A stretch of 64,000 nt of DNA from an uncultured Halobacteriales archaeon (lineage in GTDB: Archaea > Halobacteriota > Halobacteria > Halobacteriales > SKSH01). The stretch lies in NCBI GenBank assembly GCA_964579125.1, contig CAZOFG010000001.1:109928-173927 (forward strand). Reading direction: 5' to 3'. How positions within the stretch are numbered: the stretch's first letter is position 1; every line of letters begins with the position of its first letter. The notes under the pieces were generated by a model that worked only from the letters and a program-made list of their open reading frames with translations, had not been told where the DNA came from and made no database searches. Of this stretch, positions 2,974 through 57,924 are shown one piece after another. The position numbers were made by a program, and so were the translations under genes.

Positions 2974-4509
2974 ATGTGGATCGAAGCCCTCCTGGCGGTG
3001 ACGCTCATCGGCGCCGGGGCGACCTTCCTCGCCCCGAATCGCATCGCCGGAAAGCTCGCGTTCGTCCTGAGTCTGGTGCCCCTTGTGGGCAGCCTCGCGA
3101 TGTTCGCCCTCTTCGATGGGAGTGGGAACGCCCTGCGTCGCGGTGCCGATATCGCGTTCGAAGAGCAACTTGAGTGGTTCTCCCTCGGCGAGTTGTACAC
3201 GCTGAACTGGCACGTCGGTCTCGACGGAATCAGCCTCCCCTTGGTGGTCCTCGCGACGGTTCTCACGTCGGTCGCAATCTTGCACGCGTGGTCCCGTATC
3301 GACGAGCGCGAATCGCAGTTTTACGGGCTGGTCTTGTTCCTCGAGACGGCCCTGATCGGCGTTTTCGCCGCGCTCGATTTCTTCGTCTGGTTCGTCTTCT
3401 GGGAGGCCGTCCTCGTGCCGATGTATCTGTTAATCGGTATTTGGGGCGGTGAGGACCGCCGCTATGCGGCGATCAAATTCTTCGTCTACACCAACATCGC
3501 CAGCCTCGTCATGTTCATCGGCTACATCGCCCTCGTCGCCGGCCTCGGCGATGTAGTGACGAGCTTCGATCTCACCGAGGTGGCAATCGCGCTCGAGACG
3601 ACCGAACCCGATGCGCTCGAGTGGATCGACGCGAGTACGCTCAAAGCCGGTGCCTTCATCGCGTTGTTCCTCGGCTTCGCGGTGAAGGTTCCCGTCGTGC
3701 CGTTCCACACGTGGCTGCCCGACGCGCACGTGCAAGCACCGGCCCCGGTCTCGGTGCTCTTGGCCGGCGTCCTGCTGAAAATGGGCACCTACGCCCTGTT
3801 GCGGTTTAACTTCACGATGCTGCCGGAGCAGGCGGTCGACTTCGCGCCCGTGATCGCGGCAGTGGCCGTCATCAGCGTCATCTACGGGGCGATGCTGGCC
3901 CTCGCCCAACACGACCTCAAACGTATCGTCGCGTATTCATCCGTCTCATCGATGGGGTATGTGATTCTCGGGCTCATGGCACTCACCGTCTACGGAGTCG
4001 GCGGTGCGACCTTCCAAATGGTCAGTCACGGCCTCATCTCCGGGTTGTTGTTCCTCGTCGTCGGCGTCATCTACCATCACACCCACACCCGCGAGGTGGC
4101 CGACATCTCCGGACTCGCAGCGAAAATGCCCCTCACCGTCACGGCCTTCGTTGCCGGCGCATTCGCCTACCTCGGGCTGCCGCTCATGTCCGGCTTCGCG
4201 GCGGAGTTCTTCATCTTCCTCGGGGCGTTCGAATCCACGCATCTCCCCGCGGCCCAGCTCGTGACGGCGGCCGCCATGTTCGGCATCGTCATCGTGGCCG
4301 GCTATCTGCTATGGGCGATGCAACGGACGCTGTTCGGGCCATACGACCTCACCACCGGCGAGGACGCCTCCGTCGCCGCCGTCCACGATCTCGCGCCGAT
4401 GGCGATCCTCATCGGGTTGATCATCCTGCTTGGGGTCGCCCCCGATCTCGTCTTCGATATGGTCAAGGACGCGACGACACCGATCATCCCCGGAGGTGAT
4501 GGCCTGTGA
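2974..4509 (+). CDS. nuoM: NADH-quinone oxidoreductase subunit M
   Basis: 511 aa with FHTWLPDAHVQAPAPVSVLLAGVLLKMGTYALLR. ATG directly follows the nuoL stop. Confidence 0.95.
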   Translation: MWIEALLAVTLIGAGATFLAPNRIAGKLAFVLSLVPLVGSLAMFALFDGSGNALRRGADIAFEEQLEWFSLGELYTLNWHVGLDGISLPLVVLATVLTSVAILHAWSRIDERESQFYGLVLFLETALIGVFAALDFFVWFVFWEAVLVPMYLLIGIWGGEDRRYAAIKFFVYTNIASLVMFIGYIALVAGLGDVVTSFDLTEVAIALETTEPDALEWIDASTLKAGAFIALFLGFAVKVPVVPFHTWLPDAHVQAPAPVSVLLAGVLLKMGTYALLRFNFTMLPEQAVDFAPVIAAVAVISVIYGAMLALAQHDLKRIVAYSSVSSMGYVILGLMALTVYGVGGATFQMVSHGLISGLLFLVVGVIYHHTHTREVADISGLAAKMPLTVTAFVAGAFAYLGLPLMSGFAAEFFIFLGAFESTHLPAAQLVTAAAMFGIVIVAGYLLWAMQRTLFGPYDLTTGEDASVAAVHDLAPMAILIGLIILLGVAPDLVFDMVKDATTPIIPGGDGL

Positions 4510-6005
4510 GCCTGGAGTTGCCCGCCTGGTCGGCGATCGGGCCAGCGATCATCCTCGCCATAACGGCACTTTCGGTCTTCGCACTCGATAGCCTGCGACG
4601 AAAGCCGATCGACCATCGCCTACTGGCCGGCGTCGCCCTGGTTGGATCGCTCGCTGCAGGGAGTGTTTCGGTGTGGTATCTCATCGAAGGCGTGGGCGAT
4701 CCGGCCCGCCGAGGCGTCTTCGAGTTGTTCCAATCGACCCTCGTAGTCGATCGCATGGGCTTGTTCTTCGCGACCATCGTCGCCGCCGTTACGGCGCTGG
4801 TCGTTCTCGCCAGTTACGACTATCTCGGCGATCATCGCCACCGCGGCGAGTACTACTCCCTCGTGTTGCTCGCCGCCACCGGCATGACGACGATGGCCTT
4901 CGCCAACAGCCTGGTGACGGTCTTCGTCGCGCTCGAACTCTCAAGTCTGCCGTCGTATGCGTTGGTGGCCTTCCTCAAACACAATCGCGGGAGCGTCGAG
5001 GCCGGCCTGAAGTACTTCCTCATCGGTGCCACCGCGAGTGCCGTACTCGTCTACGGGATCAGCCTGGTCTATGGCGCCACCGGTGGACTCGTCCTGTCCG
5101 ACATCGCAACCAGTCTGAGCCAGTCCCAAAGCAGCCTCCTCGGTCTCGGCCTGCTATTGGTGATCGCCGGTATTACCTTCAAAACCGCCAGCGTGCCGTT
5201 TCACATCTGGGCACCGGATGCGTACGAAGGGGCGCCAGCGCCGATCAGTGCGTTTCTGTCCTCTGCCTCGAAGGCAGCCGGCTTCGTCGTCGCATTTCGC
5301 GTCTTCGTCGAGGCGTTTCCGCTCGATGTCGTGGTTGATCTCGGCCTCGATTGGGTCCTCGTCTTTCAGGTGCTCGCAGTGCTCACGATGACACTCGGCA
5401 ACGTCGCTGCAGCCACCCAAAACACCGTCAAGCGGATGCTCGCGTACTCCTCGATCGGCCACGCCGGCTACGCGCTGATCGGCCTCGCGGCGTTGACCAC
5501 CGGCGGTGCGTATAACGACCTCGTCCTCGGGGCGGGGATGATGCACCTTCTCGTGTATGGCTTCATGAATACGGGCGCGTTCCTGTTCATCGCCCTCGCG
5601 GAGCGGTGGGAGCTCGGGCGGGGATTCGATGCCTTCAACGGCCTCGCCAAAACCGCGCCGATCGCTTGCGTCGCGATGACGGTGTTGTTACTCAACCTCG
5701 CGGGGCTGCCCCTCGGCGGTGGCTTCCTCACGAAGTACGTCCTCTTCGCCGGAGCGGTGAGTGCCGGCTTCTGGTGGCTGGCGGTGGTGGGCGCGCTCAA
5801 CAGTGCCCTCTCGCTGTTTTACTACTCCCGGGTCATCAAAGCAATGTGGCTCGAAACACCCGCCGACGACCACGACATCGAGGGCTACCCGCTCGGGCTC
5901 TATACCGCCATCCTCGTCGCCACCGTCGTGACCGTCCTCGCACTGCCGGCGTTCGGCCCGATCGCCGAGACGGCCACCGATGCCGCGGGGATCGTCCTCG
6001 GGTAA
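4506..6005 (+). CDS. nuoN: NADH-quinone oxidoreductase subunit N
   Basis: 499 aa with PFHIWAPDAYEGAPAPISAFLSSASKAAGF. GTG start overlaps the nuoM stop (GTGA). Confidence 0.95.
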   Translation: MSLELPAWSAIGPAIILAITALSVFALDSLRRKPIDHRLLAGVALVGSLAAGSVSVWYLIEGVGDPARRGVFELFQSTLVVDRMGLFFATIVAAVTALVVLASYDYLGDHRHRGEYYSLVLLAATGMTTMAFANSLVTVFVALELSSLPSYALVAFLKHNRGSVEAGLKYFLIGATASAVLVYGISLVYGATGGLVLSDIATSLSQSQSSLLGLGLLLVIAGITFKTASVPFHIWAPDAYEGAPAPISAFLSSASKAAGFVVAFRVFVEAFPLDVVVDLGLDWVLVFQVLAVLTMTLGNVAAATQNTVKRMLAYSSIGHAGYALIGLAALTTGGAYNDLVLGAGMMHLLVYGFMNTGAFLFIALAERWELGRGFDAFNGLAKTAPIACVAMTVLLLNLAGLPLGGGFLTKYVLFAGAVSAGFWWLAVVGALNSALSLFYYSRVIKAMWLETPADDHDIEGYPLGLYTAILVATVVTVLALPAFGPIAETATDAAGIVLG

Positions 6006-6049
6006 CCTGACGCCAGGCTTACGACGGCTTCGATCGGAACTCATAGGAC

Positions 6050-7480
6050 ATGACTGAACGCGTGCTCCTCGGCGCGGGCAATTTGGGACGGCGCCTCGCG
6101 CAAGCCCTCTTGAGTGAGGGCGCGGCCGTTCGGGTCGGAACCGAGCGCGAAGATGCCGCATCGGAGCTACGCGAACTCGGCATTTCGGCAAGTACACTTT
6201 CCTCCCTCAGCGAGCCATCGTCGATCGCGTCCCTCGGGGACGATCCCACGACCATCATCGTCTGTGTCGACGACCTTGCGGATCCGGCTACAACACTTCG
6301 CGCCGCCCGCGACGCCTTCCCCGGGGCCCGCCGCGTCGCCCTCGTCGATACCCAACCGGCCCCACCAACCGAACTGGCCGAACAGGTCATCGACGTAGGT
6401 GCGCTCGGTGCAGACAATCTTGTTCGACGGATCCTCGATCCAGACCTGCCACGAACGATTGGCCTCCTTCGTACGCTCGAGGATCTCGAGGAACCGGTCG
6501 CCGTCGTGATGCACGATAACCCCGATCCGGACGCCATTGGTGCCGCGATCGGGATGGTCGCGCTCGCCGAGAGCGTCGGCACCGACGCGGTCCCGTGTTA
6601 CTCGGGGACGATCGCTCACCAGGAAAACCGCGCGTTCGTGAACATCCTCGACCTCGAGTTGATCGATCTCGGCGATGCCCCGAATCCCGACGAGTACGGC
6701 GGGATCATCCTCGTCGATCACGCGTATCCCGGCATCAACGATCAGCTCCCCCTGGGCGCGACCATTGACGTGATCATCGACCATCACCCCTCCCGTGAGG
6801 AAGCCCGGGCGACGTTCGTCGACCGTCGGCATTCGGTGGGCGCTACGAGCACGCTCGTGGCGAATCACCTCATCCGGGCCGAAGAACCGCTCACCACGAC
6901 ACTGGCAACGGCACTTTGGTATGGCATCCAGGTCGACACGGACGGGTTTCACCGCGGCGTCTCCTCGCTCGATTTCGAGGTGGCCGCCCGGCTGCGACCG
7001 GCCGTCGACGGCGACGTCCTCGAACAGATCGAATCCTCGCAGGTCAGTGCCGATACCTTGGAGACCATCGGAGCCGCGATCAGGAATCGCGAAACCGATG
7101 GCGCCGTCACCTTCACCGCAGTTCGGGCCATTCAGGATCGCGACGCCCTCGCCCAGGCGGCGGAGATGTTGTTGCAACTCGAGGGAATCTCGACCGTCGG
7201 CGTGGCCGGCACCACCGAAGAAATGGTGTACCTCTCGGCCCGCACGAGCGACGAGACGATCGATATCGGTGACGCCGTTCGCCTTGCGTTCGACCGCATC
7301 GGGAGTGCCGGTGGACACGAGGACATGGCCGGCGCACAAATCCCTCGCGAGGGCCGAGGCGGGCTCCCCGTCGACGATGACGACTTCGTCCCGGTCCTCA
7401 AGGCTCGATTTCTCGAGGGAATCACGGTTGCATCCCGGCCCTTGCCGTCCGGGCATCACGTCGGCGAACTCGAGGGCTGA
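6050..7480 (+). CDS. DHH/DHHA1-family phosphoesterase with N-terminal TrkA-N/Rossmann-like domain
   Basis: N-terminal GxGxxG (LLGAGNLGRRLA). DHH motifs HDNPDPDAIG, ILVDH, IIDHHP, QVDTDGF. DHHA1-type GSAGGHEDMAGAQ near the C-terminus. Confidence 0.8.
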   Translation: MTERVLLGAGNLGRRLAQALLSEGAAVRVGTEREDAASELRELGISASTLSSLSEPSSIASLGDDPTTIIVCVDDLADPATTLRAARDAFPGARRVALVDTQPAPPTELAEQVIDVGALGADNLVRRILDPDLPRTIGLLRTLEDLEEPVAVVMHDNPDPDAIGAAIGMVALAESVGTDAVPCYSGTIAHQENRAFVNILDLELIDLGDAPNPDEYGGIILVDHAYPGINDQLPLGATIDVIIDHHPSREEARATFVDRRHSVGATSTLVANHLIRAEEPLTTTLATALWYGIQVDTDGFHRGVSSLDFEVAARLRPAVDGDVLEQIESSQVSADTLETIGAAIRNRETDGAVTFTAVRAIQDRDALAQAAEMLLQLEGISTVGVAGTTEEMVYLSARTSDETIDIGDAVRLAFDRIGSAGGHEDMAGAQIPREGRGGLPVDDDDFVPVLKARFLEGITVASRPLPSGHHVGELEG

Positions 7481-7524
7481 GGCCGGGGTGCTTTTGCCCC
7501 CTCGGGACCGACCGATGAGGTGTC

Positions 7525-8313
7525 ATGCCGGAATCCCGGCGGGCGCTCGTCAAGGACTACATGACGCGCGATGTCGAGACGGTCTCCCCAGAAGACCACG
7601 TCATCGACGTCGCACGGCGGATCGCTGAGAGCAATCACAACGGCTTTCCAGTGACCGAGCGCCGCCAGGTGCAAGGGTTCGTCTCCGCACGCGATTTGTT
7701 GTTGGCCGATGACACCGAGCCAGTCTTCAAGGTCATGGCGACCGATCTCGTCGTCGCACATCCCGAGATGCGAGTGACTGACGCCGCTCGGGTCATCCTC
7801 CGGTCGGGGATTCAAAAACTCCCGGTCGTCGACGACGCGAACAACCTCGTCGGGATCATTTCCAACGCCGACGTCATTCGCAGCCACATCGAGCGCGCCA
7901 CGCCGGAGAAAGTACTCAAACTCAAAGAGACGCTCGAACGCATTCACGACCTTTCGTTCGAGATCGACCGCCATGCCGTCTCGATCGAGGATCTCGTGCC
8001 CACCCAAAAACGCGTCTACGCAGACGAACTCGAGGGACGGCAATACGAGATGGAACGCGGCCTCGCCGAACCGCTGGTCGTCATCGACGTGAATGGCCGG
8101 TTGCTCCTGGCGGATGGACACCACCGCGTTCTCGCCGCCCATCAACTCGGCATCGACGAACTCGAGGCGTACGTCATCGTCATCGAGGAGGCCAATGTCG
8201 AACTCGGCATGGAAGAAACCGCCAGACGGGAAGGCCTGGAGTCGATCGACGATATCGAGGTCGTCGATTACGCCAAACATCCCCTCATCGAGCGGACGAA
8301 ACGCCTCCAGTAG
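7525..8313 (+). CDS. CBS-pair domain protein fused to a ParB/sulfiredoxin-like domain
   Basis: Two CBS-like repeats (YMTRDVETVSPED...; VMATDLVVAHPEM...KLPVVDDANNLVGIISNADV) followed by LVPTQ and LLLADGHHRVLAAHQLG, a ParB-like DGhHR box. Confidence 0.75.
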   Translation: MPESRRALVKDYMTRDVETVSPEDHVIDVARRIAESNHNGFPVTERRQVQGFVSARDLLLADDTEPVFKVMATDLVVAHPEMRVTDAARVILRSGIQKLPVVDDANNLVGIISNADVIRSHIERATPEKVLKLKETLERIHDLSFEIDRHAVSIEDLVPTQKRVYADELEGRQYEMERGLAEPLVVIDVNGRLLLADGHHRVLAAHQLGIDELEAYVIVIEEANVELGMEETARREGLESIDDIEVVDYAKHPLIERTKRLQ

Positions 8314-8364
8314 TCGGCTCGAGCGTTTATCAATGCAGTAACAGAACGAGGCTTCAGCAAACCG

Positions 8365-8369
8365 TTTTT
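8365..8369 (+). terminator. Oligo-T tract, candidate archaeal terminator after the CBS-ParB gene
   Basis: T5 run (ccgTTTTTacc) about 50 nt after the stop at 8313. Oligo-T tracts are the usual archaeal termination signal. Confidence 0.25.
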
Positions 8370-8394
8370 ACCGTCACCCTCGTGCGATATCGTG

Positions 8395-9354
8395 ATGTCG
8401 GTCCCCGCGATCGAAGTCGATAGCTTGACGAAGCGGTACGACTCGGTGACAGCCATCGAGGATATCTCATTCACGATCGATAGCGGCGAGCTCGTCGGGA
8501 TTCTCGGGCCCAACGGGGCCGGGAAGACGACGCTAATCAAGTCGATCCTCGGGCTCGTCGTTCCATCGTCCGGTAACGTGCGAATCGCCGGAATCGACGC
8601 CCGGGAACGACCGCGTCGTGTCTATCGCCACGTCGGGGCGATGCTCGAGGGAGCGCGCAACGTTTACTGGCGCCTCACCGTCCGGGAGAACCTCGCGTTC
8701 TTCGGCGCGCTCGGAGGGCAGGATCCTGACGCCGCGCGCGATCGGCACGATCGCCTCCTCGAGCAGTTCGGCCTTGCCGATAAGGCCGACGTTCCCGTCA
8801 ACGATCTCTCGCGTGGTCAAAAGCAGAAGGTCTCACTCGCGTCGACGCTTGCGAGAGGCACGGATGTCGTTTTCCTCGACGAACCCACCCTCGGTCTCGA
8901 TGTCGAGGCCTCCCTGGAACTCCGGCGGGAACTCAGCCGGCTCGCCGAGGAGGAGGCGATTACGGTAGTCCTTTCCAGCCACGATATGGACGTGGTGGAA
9001 GACGTCTGTGATCGGGTCGTCATCCTCTCCGACGGGGGTATCATCGCCGACGACGCGGTCGACGACCTCGTCTCCGTCTTCGACACCAAGGCATACCGCA
9101 TCACCGTGAACGGGTCGGTTCCCGAAGAGGTTCGCGCGTCGCTCACGTCTTCGTTCCACGCCGACGGTTTCGAGGCCGTCGGTGATCAGACTCGCTTCGA
9201 GGTACGGGTCGACGGCGACACCACGCTCTATCAGGTCACCGATGCCCTCCGTGAACCCGGCCTCGAACTCGTCGATATCGACCGACACGACCCGGACCTC
9301 GAGGAGGTCTTCCTCGACGTGACCAACAATCGCATCCGAGGTGATGCAGCGTGA
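8395..9354 (+). CDS. ABC transporter ATP-binding protein (ABC-2/DrrA-like exporter)
   Basis: Walker A GPNGAGKTT, signature LSRGQKQKVSLA, Walker B VVFLDEPTLGLD. ATG at 8395 (GTG at 8392 possible). Confidence 0.9.
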   Translation: MSVPAIEVDSLTKRYDSVTAIEDISFTIDSGELVGILGPNGAGKTTLIKSILGLVVPSSGNVRIAGIDARERPRRVYRHVGAMLEGARNVYWRLTVRENLAFFGALGGQDPDAARDRHDRLLEQFGLADKADVPVNDLSRGQKQKVSLASTLARGTDVVFLDEPTLGLDVEASLELRRELSRLAEEEAITVVLSSHDMDVVEDVCDRVVILSDGGIIADDAVDDLVSVFDTKAYRITVNGSVPEEVRASLTSSFHADGFEAVGDQTRFEVRVDGDTTLYQVTDALREPGLELVDIDRHDPDLEEVFLDVTNNRIRGDAA

Positions 9355-10178
9355 CGTCGCCAGCGCCATCAGCCGCCCCCGTCTATACCGACGTCGACAC
9401 AGGCGTCCGCGGATATCTCCGGTTCTTGCGCGCCGCCTTCAAGAAAAAATTGCTGTTGTTATGGCGCTACCCGGTGAACACGCTCTCACAGTTCGGGACG
9501 GTCGTGATCGTCTTTCTCATCGTGTTCTATGGCGGTCAGGCGGTCGCCCCGGCGGCGATCTCCGAAAGCATCGAAGGCATCATCGTCGGCTACTTCCTCT
9601 GGAGCATGGCCGTCACGGCGTACTCGGGGCTGTCCTGGGGGGTGACCCGAGAGGCCCAGTGGGGGACGCTCGAACAGCTGTTCATGTCGCCGTTCGGCTT
9701 CAACGCCGTCATGGTCGCGAAGACCGTGGTGAACGTCCTCGAATCGTTCTTCTGGGGTGCCGGAACGCTTCTCGTTATGATGGTCGTGACCGGCCATTGG
9801 CTCGCGATCGACCCAGTAACCATTCTCCCATTGCTCACCCTCGCCATCGCCCCAGCCGTCGGCATCGGCTTCGTCTTCGGTGGGCTGGCCATCCGGTTCA
9901 AACGCATCGAGAACGCCTTTCAGTTGATGCAGTTCTTCTTCATCGGACTTATCGCTGCGCCCGTCCACGAGTATGCCCTCCTGAAATGGCTCCCGCTCGC
10001 GCAGGGGAGCCAACTCCTCCAGACGGCGATGCAAGACGGTGTCGCCCTCTGGGCACTGCCTGTCGACGAGCTTGGTGTGCTACTCGCCACGGCCGTCGGG
10101 TACCTCGTCCTCGGATACGCCGCGTTTCATTACTGCCAGCGCTGGGCGCGACGCGAAGGCGTCATGGGGCATTACTGA
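9351..10178 (+). CDS. ABC-2 type transporter permease
   Basis: 275-aa six-TM-like hydrophobic protein. GTG start overlaps the ATPase stop (GTGA). Confidence 0.8.
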   Translation: MTSPAPSAAPVYTDVDTGVRGYLRFLRAAFKKKLLLLWRYPVNTLSQFGTVVIVFLIVFYGGQAVAPAAISESIEGIIVGYFLWSMAVTAYSGLSWGVTREAQWGTLEQLFMSPFGFNAVMVAKTVVNVLESFFWGAGTLLVMMVVTGHWLAIDPVTILPLLTLAIAPAVGIGFVFGGLAIRFKRIENAFQLMQFFFIGLIAAPVHEYALLKWLPLAQGSQLLQTAMQDGVALWALPVDELGVLLATAVGYLVLGYAAFHYCQRWARREGVMGHY

Positions 10179-10208: not shown

Positions 10209-11936
10209 ATGGAGGCTCTGACGAAGTGTTCCCCCATGTACGACGAGGACGAACTCGCGGATATCCGTGGGGCCCGCGAGGACTGGGCAGAGCAAACCCT
10301 CGATCCCGCACTCGAGCACGCCGGCGAGCGAAAGGATCGGTTTGCCACGGTCTCTAACCTCGAGGTCGATCGACTGTACACGCCAGAGGACGTGGGCGAT
10401 CTCGAGTACCTCGAAGACCTCGGATTCCCGGGCGAGCCCCCGTACACGCGGGGACCGTACCCTACGATGCACCGGGGTCGGTTGTGGACGATGCGCCAAT
10501 TCGCCGGCTTCGGCACGCCCGAAGAGACCAACGAGCGATTTCATTACCTCATCGAGGAAGGACAGACGGGGCTCTCGACGGCCTTCGATATGCCGTCGCT
10601 GATGGGTATCGACTCGGATGACCGCATGAGCGACGGCGAGGTGGGCCGTGAAGGCGTCGCGGTCGACACGCTGCGCGATATGGAGATCATTTTCGACGGA
10701 ATCGACCTCGGCGAGATCTCGACGAGTTTCACGATCAACCCGAGCGCACCGGTCATTTACGCGATGTACGTCGCCCTCGCCGATCAACAGGGCGTTCCCC
10801 GCGAGCGGATTCGGGGGACACTCCAGAACGACATGTTCAAGGAGTTCATCGCGCAGAAGGAGTGGGTGGTTCCCCCGGATCCCTCACTGAAACTCGTCAC
10901 TGACGTGGTCGAATTCGCCGCGGACGAGACGCCGAAGTTCCATCCCATCTCCATCTCCGGATATCACATCCGTGAGGCCGGGTCGACGGCCATCCAAGAG
11001 TTGGCGTTCACGTTAGCGGACGGCTTCGCCTACGTCGAGGACGCCCTCGACCGGGGGCTCGAATTGCCCGAATTCGCTCCCCGACTCTCGTTCTTCTTCA
11101 ACTGTCACAACTCCTTTTTCGAGGAGATCGCCAAATTCCGTGCGGCCCGGCGTATTTGGGCGGATCGCATGGCTGAGTGGTATGGGGCGACCGAGGACGA
11201 GGTACGCCGGCTCAAGTTCCACACTCAAACGGCCGGGCAGAGTCTCACCGCCCAACAGCCCCTGAACAACGTCACCCGCACAACGATCCAAGCGCTCGCG
11301 GCCGTACTCGGCGGGACCCAAAGCCTCCACACGAACAGCTACGACGAGGCCCACGCTCTCCCGAGCGAGGAGGCCGTCCGGGTGGCCCTCAGAACCCAAC
11401 AGATCATCGCCGAGGAATCTGGCGTCGCCGACACGGTCGACCCGCTCGGGGGGAGCTTTGCCGTCGAAGCGCTGACCAACGAGGTCGAAGAAGAGGCGAT
11501 GGCCTACATCGAAGAGATTCGTGACCTCGGTGACGGGTCGATGCGGGAAGGCGTCCTCGCCGGGATCGACGAGGGCTACTTCCAGCGTGAAATCCAGGAG
11601 GCCGCCTACGAGTACCAGGAACGCGTCGAACGCGAGGAGGAAGTCGTCGTCGGGGTCAACAAATACACCATCGAGGAGGACACCAGCCCCGAAATCCTCA
11701 AAATCGACGAGGCAACCCAACGCGAGCAGCGCGAGCGCCTTGCCCACGTCAAAGACGAGCGCGACGACGAGGCCGTCGAAACCGCCCTTGCTGAGATCCG
11801 AGCAGCTGAGAAAGCCGGGGAGAACGTCATTCCGCCGATGATCGAGGCGGTGAAAGCGTATGCCACGATGGGGGAGATTATGTCGGTCTTCGAAGACCTC
11901 CACGGCCCCTATCAGGAGACGATCGGCGTCGCTTGA
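10209..11936 (+). CDS. mcmA: Methylmalonyl-CoA mutase, large catalytic subunit
   Basis: LWTMRQFAGFGTPEETNERFHYLIEEGQTGLSTAFDMPSLMGIDSDD and downstream MCM core. Alternative ATG at 10236. Confidence 0.93.
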   Translation: MEALTKCSPMYDEDELADIRGAREDWAEQTLDPALEHAGERKDRFATVSNLEVDRLYTPEDVGDLEYLEDLGFPGEPPYTRGPYPTMHRGRLWTMRQFAGFGTPEETNERFHYLIEEGQTGLSTAFDMPSLMGIDSDDRMSDGEVGREGVAVDTLRDMEIIFDGIDLGEISTSFTINPSAPVIYAMYVALADQQGVPRERIRGTLQNDMFKEFIAQKEWVVPPDPSLKLVTDVVEFAADETPKFHPISISGYHIREAGSTAIQELAFTLADGFAYVEDALDRGLELPEFAPRLSFFFNCHNSFFEEIAKFRAARRIWADRMAEWYGATEDEVRRLKFHTQTAGQSLTAQQPLNNVTRTTIQALAAVLGGTQSLHTNSYDEAHALPSEEAVRVALRTQQIIAEESGVADTVDPLGGSFAVEALTNEVEEEAMAYIEEIRDLGDGSMREGVLAGIDEGYFQREIQEAAYEYQERVEREEEVVVGVNKYTIEEDTSPEILKIDEATQREQRERLAHVKDERDDEAVETALAEIRAAEKAGENVIPPMIEAVKAYATMGEIMSVFEDLHGPYQETIGVA

Positions 11937-11987: not shown

Positions 11988-12974
11988 TTACGGTCGATCG
12001 TCGTCTTCGAGACACGCCCAAATCGGGTCGGTCACCGACTCGACTGCAGCGTAGGGGTCCGTTTCACGTGCGCGAATCGCGTCGACGAGCTCGGTCATGC
12101 CGCCCTGGGCGGCGAGTTCTTCGTCGATCATCGCACCTACATCCTCCCGCAACAGCGTTCTGAGTTCTTCGCGATAGCGTCGGCGCTGCTGGTCACGTCC
12201 CGAGTCAGTCGTGGTGAGATGCTCGCGGTGCGCATCGATCGCGTCGATGAGGTCAGCAATCCCCGTTTCCGCCGTCGCAACGGTCTCGATGATGGGGGGT
12301 TCCCACGCCTCACCGCCCTCGAGTTCGGGATCGATCCGACTCAACTCGCGCAGTTCCTCGACGACCCGGTCGGCCCCGTCGAGATCCGCCTTGTTCACGA
12401 CGAAGACATCCGCGATCTCGAGGATGCCCGCTTTGAGGACTTGGACCATATCGCCAGATTGGGGCGGCACGAGCACGAGAACGGTTCCGGCCGTCCGTAC
12501 GATGTCGATCTCGTTCTGACCGGCCCCGACCGTTTCGATGATGATCCGATCCATGCCGGCCGCGTCGAACACGCGGACCGCGTCCGCCGTCGCGCTTGAG
12601 AGTCCGCCGAGAGTGCCCCTGGCGCTCATCGAGCGCACGAAGACGTCATCGTCGGTGACCGCCTCGGCCATGCGGATCCGATCGCCTAGTACCGCCCCAC
12701 CGGAAAAGGGCGATGAGGGATCGATCGCGATGACACCGACGGACTCCCCTCGATCCCGATACGCACCGACGAGTTTGTCCACGAGGGTCGATTTGCCGGC
12801 GCCGGGACTACCAGTCACCCCGATCACCGACGCATCGGTGCTTTGGCGGTGTAACGCACCGACGAGGTCCCGATAGCCAGGCTCACGGTTTTCGATGCGC
12901 GTAATGGCGCGGGCGATCGCCCGCTGCTCACCGGTCACAACGCCCTCGGGGAGGTCGGGCTCCTCGGCCGTCAT
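11988..12974 (-). CDS. meaB: Methylmalonyl-CoA mutase-associated G-protein MeaB (ArgK family)
   Basis: P-loop GVTGSPGAGKSTLVDKL, IAIDPSSPFSGGAVLGDRIRM, NKADL. Start overlaps the mcmB stop. Confidence 0.92.
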   Translation of the reverse strand: MTAEEPDLPEGVVTGEQRAIARAITRIENREPGYRDLVGALHRQSTDASVIGVTGSPGAGKSTLVDKLVGAYRDRGESVGVIAIDPSSPFSGGAVLGDRIRMAEAVTDDDVFVRSMSARGTLGGLSSATADAVRVFDAAGMDRIIIETVGAGQNEIDIVRTAGTVLVLVPPQSGDMVQVLKAGILEIADVFVVNKADLDGADRVVEELRELSRIDPELEGGEAWEPPIIETVATAETGIADLIDAIDAHREHLTTTDSGRDQQRRRYREELRTLLREDVGAMIDEELAAQGGMTELVDAIRARETDPYAAVESVTDPIWACLEDDDRP

Positions 12975-13387
12975 CGCTCCGGCACGTGATCGCGAATAAA
13001 CGAAATAGTCTCCTCGATGCTCGTGCCGGGGCCGAAGACCTCCGCGACGCCAGCCTCTTTGAGCGCTTCGGCGTCCTCATCGGGGATAACCCCGCCGACG
13101 AGGACGAGGGTGTCCTCGAACGCCTCGGCTTCTTGAAGGCCCTCGATGACCTGTGGAACGAGCGTGTTGTGCGCACCGGAGAGGATCGAGATGCCGATCA
13201 CGTCGACATCTTCCTGGATGGCAGCTTGGACGATCTCCTCGGGGGCCCGATGCAGCCCCGAGTACACGACCTCGAAGCCGGCGTCACGAAACGCTCGCGC
13301 GATCACGTGTGCCCCACGGTCGTGTCCATCGAGGCCGACCTTCGCAACGAGACAGCGAATCGCCCGCTGTCGGCCATCGGTGCTCAT
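12971..13387 (-). CDS. mcmB: Methylmalonyl-CoA mutase, cobalamin-binding small subunit
   Basis: 138 aa with the B12-binding DxHxxG context VAKVGLDGHDRGAHVIARAF. Confidence 0.92.
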   Translation of the reverse strand: MSTDGRQRAIRCLVAKVGLDGHDRGAHVIARAFRDAGFEVVYSGLHRAPEEIVQAAIQEDVDVIGISILSGAHNTLVPQVIEGLQEAEAFEDTLVLVGGVIPDEDAEALKEAGVAEVFGPGTSIEETISFIRDHVPER

Positions 13388-57850: not shown

Positions 57851-57924
57851 GGGCCAATAGCTCAGCCAGGTTGAGCGCTCGGCTGATAACCGGGAGGTCC
57901 TCGGTTCAAATCCGAGTTGGCCCA
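57851..57924 (+). tRNA. tRNA-Ile (anticodon GAU)
   Basis: Hand-folded cloverleaf: acceptor GGGCCAA/TTGGCCC, D-stem GCTC/GAGC, anticodon stem CTCGG/CCGGG with loop CTGATAA (GAT), T-arm CTCGG-TTCAAAT-CCGAG, discriminator A, no encoded CCA. Confidence 0.95.

Follow-up and report, generated by a model that had tools for sequence, protein, structure and literature searches.

Two adjacent genes are described here in a 64-kb stretch of contig CAZOFG010000001.1 from an uncultured Halobacteriales archaeon (the window; all coordinates refer to it, with position 1 as its first letter). Gene A (6050–7480, + strand) encodes a 476-residue phosphoesterase with TrkA_N–DHH–DHHA1 architecture, predicted to be a cyclic di-adenosine monophosphate (c-di-AMP)/pApA phosphodiesterase, and gene B (7525–8313, + strand) encodes a 262-residue protein that joins a CBS pair to a ParB/Srx fold. 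The listing of open reading frames (ORFs) leaves a spacer of 44 nucleotides (nt) between them (7481–7524), and nuoL, nuoM and nuoN lie upstream. An earlier account of this locus, made from its letters and ORFs (hereafter the original prediction), had placed two same-strand genes 44 nt apart directly after a nuo cluster; the ORFs lie exactly there, and every motif that it quoted is present (GxGxxG, HDNPDPD, DHH, DTDGF and GGH in gene A, LVPTQ and DGHHR in gene B). Its domain-level reading is correct, and its interpretation is partly supported and mostly not new.

Pfam recognizes both catalytic domains of gene A (DHH, E = 2.5e-14, 54.1 bits, residues 150–293; DHHA1, E = 2.2e-12, 47.8 bits, residues 356–434). 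The DHH catalytic domain (residues 148–300; 6491–6949, + strand) carries motifs I to IV as HDNPDPD (155–161), VDH (222–224), DHH (244–246) and DTDGF (296–300). In an alignment of 37 sequences (A2), the stretches H155–D161, V222–H224 and D244–H246 are invariant, as is D296, with T297 and F300 nearly so. The DHHA1 substrate-binding domain (residues 348–435; 7091–7354, + strand) follows with DRDAL (363–367), SAR (396–398) and GGH (421–423), and its core residues R364, D365, L367, S396, R398 and G421–H423 show no variation across the same alignment. The GGGH motif of DHHA1 appears in gene A as SAGGH, the first glycine being replaced with alanine in all haloarchaeal homologues. The catalytic motifs align one to one with those of GdpP, and the invariance of the core in 37 homologues bears out the claim that gene A contains a complete DHH/DHHA1 module. 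The AlphaFold model, with a mean predicted local distance difference test score (pLDDT) of 89.3, arranges the protein as a six-strand Rossmann unit (residues 4–128), a linker helix, DHH, DHHA1 and a C-terminal helix, so that the Rossmann–DHH–DHHA1 fold stood up when the structure was predicted. At the locus from Natronomonas sp. CBA1123 (L035, 4472–5766), tblastn recovers the DHH orthologue in two overlapping pieces (query residues 3–304 and 291–432), pointing to a frameshift, a pseudogene or faulty assembly of that genome.

The N-terminal portion of gene A (residues 1–128; 6050–6433, + strand) is an RCK_N/TrkA_N-like Rossmann domain with the glycines of GxGxxG at G8, G10 and G13. The AlphaFold model builds residues 4–128 from six beta-alpha units, and on this predicted fold the N-terminus can be assigned to the TrkA_N/RCK_N class; the Pfam call itself is below threshold, and we accept it because most homologues bear PF02254 and because AlphaFold shows a Rossmann fold. 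Comparison with proteins P0001–P0018 shows that this domain changes much faster than the catalytic core, being 25–34% identical to its counterparts, apart from the 92%-identical P0001, in homologues whose DHH and DHHA1 domains are 50–69% and 45–59% identical to those of gene A. The glycine signature reads GAGNLG in gene A and GADELG in P0001; most cultured haloarchaea retain it as GCGxVG, and in the uncultured Halobacteriales clade that includes the window it is disrupted in the majority of members. According to PMC12699388, ATP, ADP or NAD(H) is the ligand of RCK_N (TrkA_N) domains, with RCK_C as the expected site for c-di-AMP. Since c-di-AMP is expected at the latter domain and GxGxxG is lost in the nearest relatives, the original prediction of a ligand-gated phosphodiesterase is weakened: gating by c-di-AMP or by a dinucleotide is not well supported in this lineage and appears doubtful. 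Oligomerisation is the safer and most likely role for the Rossmann domain.

Gene A belongs to a large family of more than 1,500 homologues, in which every match with a named source comes from Halobacteria. Most members bear precomputed DHH, TrkA_N (PF02254) and DHHA1 matches, and the annotation given is "DHH family phosphoesterase" or "nanoRNase/pAp phosphatase (c-di-AMP/oligoRNAs hydrolase)". The nearest relatives are found in metagenome-assembled genomes (MAGs) of uncultured Halobacteriales, and identity to homologues is 42–53% (approximately 42–46% to proteins of cultured haloarchaea). Among proteins of solved structure, the closest by both sequence and fold are GdpP, DhhP, TM1595, Rv2837c and Pde2, in line with the kinship to c-di-AMP and pApA phosphodiesterases that had been proposed. 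GdpP is the best sequence match to the catalytic domain (E = 3e-11), and its catalytic domain is also the top Foldseek match to the gene A model in the PDB (E = 5e-21). A Deinococcus radiodurans RecJ-like protein (8ioo), Borrelia DhhP, TM1595, Rv2837c, Pde2 and NrnA come next, with E values between 1e-18 and 1e-14; pyrophosphatases rank lower, and RecJ-Cdc45 is reached at 5e-9.

Assignment of gene A to one of the named DHH families was considered and rejected in each case. The GdpP-L9 model of NCBIfam falls far below its cut-off and neither PAS nor GGDEF is matched, only the catalytic domain being homologous to GdpP. The stand-alone enzymes of the NrnA, DhhP or Pde2 type have approximately 310–340 residues, as opposed to 476 with an extra N-terminal domain in gene A, and gene A reaches only 16 bits on the NCBIfam NrnA model, whose cut-off is 350. 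For RecJ and RecJ-Cdc45, the RecJ_archaeal model gives 17.7 bits (cut-off 360) and the Foldseek match is far below that of GdpP; for the family II pyrophosphatases, PRK05427 gives 41 bits (cut-off 283) and the substrate-binding domain is DHHA1, not DHHA2. Model scores this far below their cut-offs, combined with the Foldseek ranking, therefore place gene A in a distinct DHH subfamily, with a catalytic core that is closest to the cyclic-dinucleotide and pApA phosphodiesterases.

The TrkA_N–DHH–DHHA1 architecture has a characterized precedent: PMC12699388 credits Jin et al. 2023 with showing that a protein of this build is the enzyme that degrades c-di-AMP in Pyrococcus yayanosii and in Thermococcus kodakarensis, and that inactivation of the single phosphodiesterase of T. 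kodakarensis raised c-di-AMP threefold. As far as that account describes the P. yayanosii enzyme (PyaPDE; Jin et al. 2023, Protein Sci 32:e4829), gene A shares with it the order of TrkA_N/RCK_N Rossmann, DHH and DHHA1 domains, and all catalytic motifs are intact in gene A as they are in the PyaPDE class. Gene A differs in being haloarchaeal (acidic, high-salt) and in its highly divergent N-terminal domain, whose GxGxxG is unstable within the clade. The likeness to GdpP of Staphylococcus aureus and Bacillus subtilis (PDB 5xsi, 5xsp and 9n0l) lies in the DHH/DHHA1 catalytic domain; the N-terminus of GdpP is made of transmembrane helices, PAS and a degenerate GGDEF, the place of which is taken in gene A by a soluble Rossmann domain.

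Closer to home, HVO_0990 and its paralogue HVO_1690 of Haloferax volcanii, which are published candidate c-di-AMP phosphodiesterases (PMC8305020, PMC12699388), share the architecture of gene A, with the catalytic domain starting at about residue 140 in both. Three H. volcanii genes in all are listed as predicted c-di-AMP phosphodiesterases, the same three in PMC8305020 (2021), a paper that explicitly counts the c-di-AMP-degrading enzyme of haloarchaea among the open annotation problems. A supplement table of that paper gives HVO_0986 as a paralogue of dabB (HVO_2411); we read HVO_0986 as a nuoL-like gene, which would put HVO_0990 immediately behind the nuo genes. As gene A likewise follows nuoN, it probably corresponds to HVO_0990 (the fetched loci contain no Haloferax). 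The idea behind gene A is already in print, and gene A itself adds a divergent member to an enzyme class that was known and had been proposed before.

Gene B opens with the CBS pair (residues 8–124; 7546–7896, + strand), which Pfam detects as two stretches (E = 1.2e-24), the first at residues 9–61. Each site carries the G-h-h-S-x-x-D ribose-binding signature (G51-F-V-S-A-R-D57 and G110-I-I-S-N-A-D116), and G51, F52, A55, D57, G110, I112–N114 and D116 are invariant in the family alignment. The AlphaFold model (pLDDT 79.5) continues with a linker helix (127–141) and a beta/alpha domain that corresponds to the ParB/Srx (ParB-CTPase) fold (residues 146–235; 7960–8229, + strand). Box I consists of PTQ (159–161) and the loop GLAEP (179–183), and Box II, with the consensus GxxR, reads GHHR (198–201); none of these three motifs varies between Halobacteria, Methanobacteria and Archaeoglobus. 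In the longer strings LVPTQ (157–161) and DGHHR (197–201), both of which are present, L157 and V158 vary within the family alignment. Two ribose-binding signatures followed by Box I and the GxxR of Box II confirm that gene B is, as had been claimed, a CBS pair fused to a ParB/Srx domain. Pfam and the alignment detect no helix-turn-helix, no C-terminal dimerisation domain and no Box III (ENxxR) in gene B, and only about 40 residues extend beyond the ParB core in the AlphaFold model.

The assignment of the ParB fold comes from sequence profiles, because CBS matches fill the Foldseek list of gene B (headed by CBS proteins with bound nucleotides, among them AcuB, CBSX2 and MJ0922). When a profile of nine sequences of the C-terminal domain (A3), including methanogen and Archaeoglobus members, was run against the PDB, it matched Helicobacter pylori ParB (4umk, E = 4.7e-5) and Spo0J (0.015), as well as SerK (0.021, with VDGHHR in common) and SbnI (0.08). 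ParBc_2 matches all nine profile members and DUF1015 four of them; given that the profile matches ParB and that ParBc_2 finds 9/9 members, we accept the ParBc_2 call in gene B, which is itself below threshold. The NCBIfam model CBS_CbpB, which describes the c-di-AMP-binding CbpB/DarB, reaches 26.6 bits against a cut-off of 125, a generic CBS similarity. CBS proteins in structures of the Methanosarcina 70S ribosome (PDB 9znf and 9zni; SriA/SriB complexes) are also generically similar to the CBS pair of gene B; archaeal CBS proteins can have ribosome-associated roles, and nothing here points to gene B doing so.

Gene B is 70–85% identical to its homologues across Halobacteria, many of which NCBI names "CBS pair associated ParBc domain-containing protein", and approximately 50% identical to those of Methanothermobacter, Methanobacterium and Archaeoglobus. 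An exhaustive HMMER search with the ParB-like domain alone returned only 139 cluster representatives at E ≤ 1e-3, and most of the stronger full-length matches have 240–283 residues with the ParB-like domain at the C-terminus, the architecture of gene B. One metagenomic representative (P0241, 512 residues) is a head-to-tail tandem of two complete CBS–ParB units, holding four CBS motifs and two ParB-like domains; this tandem fusion suggests that the family works as a dimer. The nearest relatives of the C-terminal domain that lack CBS are remote (P0289, P0336 and P0326); they carry either phosphoenolpyruvate (PEP)-utilising phosphohistidine domains, in one case together with TIR, or DUF1015. These fusions hint that the DGHHR-type ParB/Srx subfamily may perform phosphotransfer rather than CTP switching.

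The ParB-CTPase fold is characterized by the C-motif of Box I and the GxxR of Box II, with Box III often missing in orphans (PMC12704722). According to the survey in the same paper (Kaljevic et al. 2025, PNAS), the fusion to CBS is the most frequent ParB-CTPase fusion in archaea and its function is unknown; none of the eleven positive nucleotide binders reported there is a CBS fusion. The survey describes the CBS–ParB class as single-copy, chromosomal and vertically inherited in Haloarchaea and Methanobacteriota. Gene B is identical to this named class in architecture and distribution, with no structural difference, and represents a known, uncharacterised architecture; its position beside a phosphodiesterase gene in Halobacteria is not mentioned in PMC12704722. 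Gene B shares with canonical ParB/Spo0J CTPases (PDB 4umk, 1vz0 and 6sdk) the ParB fold, Box I (PxQ and the GLxxP loop) and Box II GxxR; unlike them, it has no helix-turn-helix, C-terminal dimerisation domain, Box III or parA partner, and it carries a CBS pair at its N-terminus. The ParB/Srx fold is likewise common to gene B, SerK of T. kodakarensis (PDB 5x0j) and SbnI, and SerK has the VDGHHR form of Box II. Here, the similarity is weak and only the Box II region aligns (E = 0.02–0.08); gene B, in contrast to SerK, has no C-terminal substrate domain and has a CBS pair in front.

To characterize the gene order, we used 80 loci from a scan of GTDB species representatives, searched by tblastn with the window proteins. 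Gene A and gene B were scored as adjacent when they lay less than 1 kb apart on the same strand, and all counts refer to haloarchaeal loci with enough flanking sequence. Gene A stands directly 5' of gene B in 66 of the 70 loci (94%), and nuoN directly 5' of gene A in 55 of 64. Gene B is directly followed by the methylmalonyl-CoA mutase gene in 30 of 67 loci and by the ABC transporter genes in 7 of 67. Because the mutase gene follows directly in 30 loci, the larger arrangement of nuoMN, gene A, gene B and the mutase gene represents an old haloarchaeal gene order. The pair is nonetheless kept without nuoMN upstream in eight loci (from Halorientalis, Haloarculaceae and others), and in cultured genomes the best matches to gene A are the very ORFs that adjoin the CBS–ParB gene. 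The exceptions are few: in Natrinema gari (L017) no DHH gene lies within 6 kb of gene B, in Halorussus marinus (L043) the DHH gene is found approximately 4 kb downstream on the opposite strand, past the mutase gene, and in a Haloplanus MAG (L062) and Natrinema altunense (L022) insertions of 3.7 kb and 1.6 kb, respectively, separate the two genes. In both Natrinema loci, gene B is intact together with its promoter-like element.

Outside Halobacteria, none of the six loci with a gene B homologue (from Methanobacteria, Archaeoglobus and related organisms) has a DHH gene within 6 kb, so that the conserved adjacency that was looked for holds within the class and stops at its border. The homologue in Methanothermobacter has radical SAM, gatB, hisE and GNAT genes as neighbours, and that in Archaeoglobus an aminotransferase, a lysA-like decarboxylase, a DUF498 protein and a HydF-like GTPase. 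None of the 139 cluster representatives is a fusion of DHH with CBS–ParB. Thus, the two genes are tightly linked in one class and unlinked beyond it, and nuoN, which is functionally unrelated, is almost as faithful a neighbour. They also diverge unequally. When the window is compared with the MAGs closest to it (L001–L003 and L078), gene B is 81–83%, the mutase 83–85% and nuoM 76–78% identical, and gene A only 47–52%.

The 70 nt 5' of the start codons were aligned for approximately 70 unique haloarchaeal loci (from L001–L073 and L078), with 67 unique regions for gene A and 75 for gene B. Against a background of about 0.3 in both sets, the A+T fraction upstream of gene A rises to 0.79–0.91 at −30 to −27 (motif GGTAGCTTTTACC/GCTTTTACC or TTTA), with a weaker peak of 0.55–0.57 at −12 and −11. 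Upstream of gene B it reaches 0.84, 0.87 and 0.91 at −29 to −27 (CTTTTG or GTTTTC), with a second peak of 0.75 at −11. Promoters of haloarchaeal leaderless mRNAs combine a TATA box with a −10/−11 WW element, and the observed peaks fit this geometry. In the window, a weak TATA-like CTTACG (6018–6023, + strand) lies 27–32 nt 5' of the gene A start, degenerate like its counterpart in L003 (GGGTTACCC), and the T-tract TTTT (GCTTTTGC; 7492–7495, + strand) lies 30–33 nt 5' of the gene B start codon. This tract is probably the TATA element of a promoter belonging to gene B, and it may in addition terminate gene A as a U-tract. Since the element keeps its distance to the ATG in three loci that lack the DHH gene or carry it in another place (L017, L021 and L022), it is a promoter feature of gene B and not only a terminator of gene A. 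The genes never overlap and their spacer never falls below approximately 32–45 nt, the shortest spacers, of 41–45 nt, being just long enough for such a promoter. As each gene has its own conserved TATA-like element, we regard gene A and gene B as conserved neighbours with separate promoters and not as an obligate operon, although read-through transcription may occur. A scan for sigma-70 promoters and intrinsic terminators, which is not suited to archaea, gave nothing above background.

The surroundings of the pair are those of a nuo cluster upstream and a variable flank downstream. The former comprises nuoL (952–2973, + strand), nuoM (2974–4509, + strand) and nuoN (4506–6005, + strand; Pfam Proton_antipo_M, E = 2.6e-64), the last nuo gene, which lies outside the pair and ends 44 nt before the start of gene A; nuoM and nuoN overlap by 4 nt, unlike gene A and gene B. 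Downstream, also outside the pair, are genes for an ABC transporter ATPase (8392–9354, + strand; Pfam ABC_tran, E = 9.7e-32) and a putative permease without a Pfam match (9351–10178, + strand). The large subunit of methylmalonyl-CoA mutase (10209–11936, + strand) comes next, facing MeaB (11988–12974, − strand) and the B12-binding small subunit of the mutase (12971–13387, − strand), both recognized by Pfam. The 78-nt spacer 3' of gene B contains two A+T-rich elements, TTTATC (8324–8330) and TTTTTA (8364–8369), the latter about 27 nt ahead of an ATG at 8395; the transporter genes probably have a promoter of their own, and the ATPase may start at this ATG instead of the GTG at 8392. Two antisense ORFs that cover both genes (6167–7459 and 7456–8280, − strand) were dismissed as a by-product of the G+C content of approximately 64%, because homology backs the plus-strand genes. 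The 64-kb window contains no paralogue of gene A or gene B, and no parA was found near gene B, whose neighbours are nuoN, the DHH gene and the ABC transporter. An Rfam scan of the window gave no riboswitch or structured RNA near the pair, its sole match being a transfer RNA gene (57851–57924, + strand).

Overall, gene A and gene B are probably two neighbouring housekeeping genes with separate promoters, the former the haloarchaeal orthologue of the archaeal TrkA_N–DHH–DHHA1 phosphodiesterase and the latter a member of a conserved euryarchaeal family that joins a CBS pair to the ParB-CTPase fold. From the domain content, motifs, folds, synteny and promoter-like elements observed here, we infer substrates, ligands and a possible coupling as follows. 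The DHH domain of gene A would form a Mn2+-dependent two-metal centre with H155/D156, D159, D161, D223, H245/H246 and D296, and the DHHA1 domain (R364, R398 and GGH 421–423) would grip the nucleotide. The enzyme would cut 3'–5' phosphodiester bonds, converting c-di-AMP into 5'-pApA and then AMP, a substrate suggested by its family, and its Rossmann domain would serve oligomerisation and, at best, optional sensing of adenine nucleotides. Gene B would work as a dimer in which an adenosine-type ligand on the CBS module controls nucleoside triphosphate (NTP) binding, dimerisation or phosphotransfer at the GxxR pocket, both ligands and output being conjectural; it has no DNA-binding domain.

Several points weigh against this reading. 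Whereas the domain searches clearly supported the DHH, DHHA1 and CBS domains of the original prediction, TrkA_N scores 22.0 bits on gene A (residues 5–102), just below its cut-off of 23.8, and ParBc_2 scores 19.9 bits on gene B (residues 151–222) against 23.6, both calls having been accepted on the other evidence described above. The gene B model has a predicted template modelling score (pTM) of only 0.50, and the 50 Foldseek matches shown for the whole model are all CBS proteins. Validation of the TrkA_N–DHH–DHHA1 class comes from Thermococcales and not yet from inside Halobacteria, and the case for orthology between gene A and the validated PyaPDE is one of shared architecture. The 80 loci sampled do not include Haloferax, Halobacterium, Haloarcula or Halorubrum. 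Moreover, with three candidates in H. volcanii, the gene A orthologue may act mainly on pApA, nanoRNA or pAp. It is indeed conceivable, if rather unlikely, that gene A is a general nanoRNase/pAp phosphatase of the NrnA type, clearing short RNAs and pAp with no specific part in c-di-AMP turnover, and that the actual phosphodiesterase is a paralogue of the HVO_1690 or HVO_0756 type. The three candidates, the annotation of homologues as nanoRNase/pAp phosphatases, and the Foldseek matches (E = 1e-14 to 1e-18) to NrnA, a Bacteroides nanoRNase and the D. radiodurans RecJ-like protein would accommodate such an activity. However, the best matches in both sequence and fold are GdpP catalytic domains, the NrnA model of NCBIfam is far from its cut-off, and the same three-domain architecture is that of the c-di-AMP phosphodiesterase validated in Thermococcales, as reported through PMC12699388.

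The adjacency of the two genes raises the alternative that they form a single module, in which gene A degrades c-di-AMP and the CBS pair of gene B senses c-di-AMP, pApA or AMP, either to set an NTP-dependent switch or to regulate the phosphodiesterase. The 66/70 adjacency is the most conserved link of the region and persists where the nuoMN flank is lost, CBS pairs are established in bacteria as receptors of c-di-AMP (PMC12699388), the ribose-binding signatures are intact at both CBS sites of gene B, and PMC12704722 asks as an open question whether ParB-CTPase folds bind cyclic dinucleotides. Against this stand the six non-haloarchaeal loci without a nearby DHH gene, a conserved promoter-like element for each gene with a spacer that does not fall below about 32–45 nt, the absence of a fusion among the 139 cluster representatives, and the CbpB score far short of its cut-off. 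In addition, the two proteins evolve at unequal rates (42–53% identity for gene A, 70–85% for gene B), and nuoN is linked to gene A almost as often without an evident functional reason. We consider this alternative fairly improbable. The adjacency across the sampled Halobacteria is compatible with a functional connection and is no proof of one; because the genes have their own promoters, are not linked outside Halobacteria, occur in no fusion and are flanked by a nearly equally conserved nuoN, we treat the functional unit that had been put forward as a working hypothesis, of which the adjacency is the part that stood.

A different possibility concerns gene B by itself, which could be a CBS-regulated small-molecule kinase or phosphotransferase of the SerK, SbnI or sulfiredoxin type and no nucleotide-driven switch, with the adjacency to gene A being inherited synteny only. 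VDGHHR is common to gene B and the free serine kinase SerK (5x0j), and SbnI is matched as well; ParBc_2 is the best Pfam family and DUF1015 is detected in part of the profile; the remote relatives P0289 and P0336 are fused to PEP-utilising phosphohistidine domains; and genes of amino-acid metabolism adjoin the gene B homologue in methanogens and Archaeoglobus. We nevertheless find this unlikely: the SerK matches are weak (E = 0.02–0.07) and surpassed by ParB proteins, the fusions to PEP-utilising domains belong to distant relatives (E = 1e-11 to 3e-5), and the approximately 40 residues past the ParB core replace no SerK substrate domain, which is absent. Finally, the Pfam family name "putative ParB-like nuclease" and the label "ParB/RepB/Spo0J family partition protein" on one homologue (P0213) would suggest a partition protein or nuclease acting on DNA. 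This is highly improbable for a protein with no helix-turn-helix, C-terminal dimerisation domain or Box III, no parA nearby, and the single-copy, vertically inherited chromosomal distribution described in PMC12704722.

A specialist would not be surprised by either gene, and the locus adds no new enzyme type. What is new here are the adjacency counts across Halobacteria, the separate promoters, the decay of the N-terminal motif within the clade, the absence of linkage outside Halobacteria and the absence of a fusion protein. In Haloferax volcanii, the level of c-di-AMP is critical for osmotic homeostasis. The locus sharpens the list of candidate haloarchaeal c-di-AMP phosphodiesterases, as the nuo-adjacent TrkA_N–DHH–DHHA1 gene, probably the HVO_0990 orthologue, is catalytically intact by its motifs and sits beside the CBS–ParB gene in nearly all sampled haloarchaeal loci. 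This adjacency provides a cheap and testable lead on the function of the CBS/ParB-CTPase family: if c-di-AMP, pApA or AMP controls the ParB-fold domain, two active fields would be linked, and otherwise the adjacency would be a conserved but meaningless gene order. That gene B in Halobacteria is a receptor or effector of the c-di-AMP pathway, with the CBS pair sensing c-di-AMP, pApA or AMP, an NTP switch at the ParB fold, and an action that controls or follows the phosphodiesterase, seems distinctly unlikely at present. If true, a first function would be assigned to the ParB-fold fusion that is most frequent in archaea, and archaea would have a first c-di-AMP effector that is not an RCK protein.

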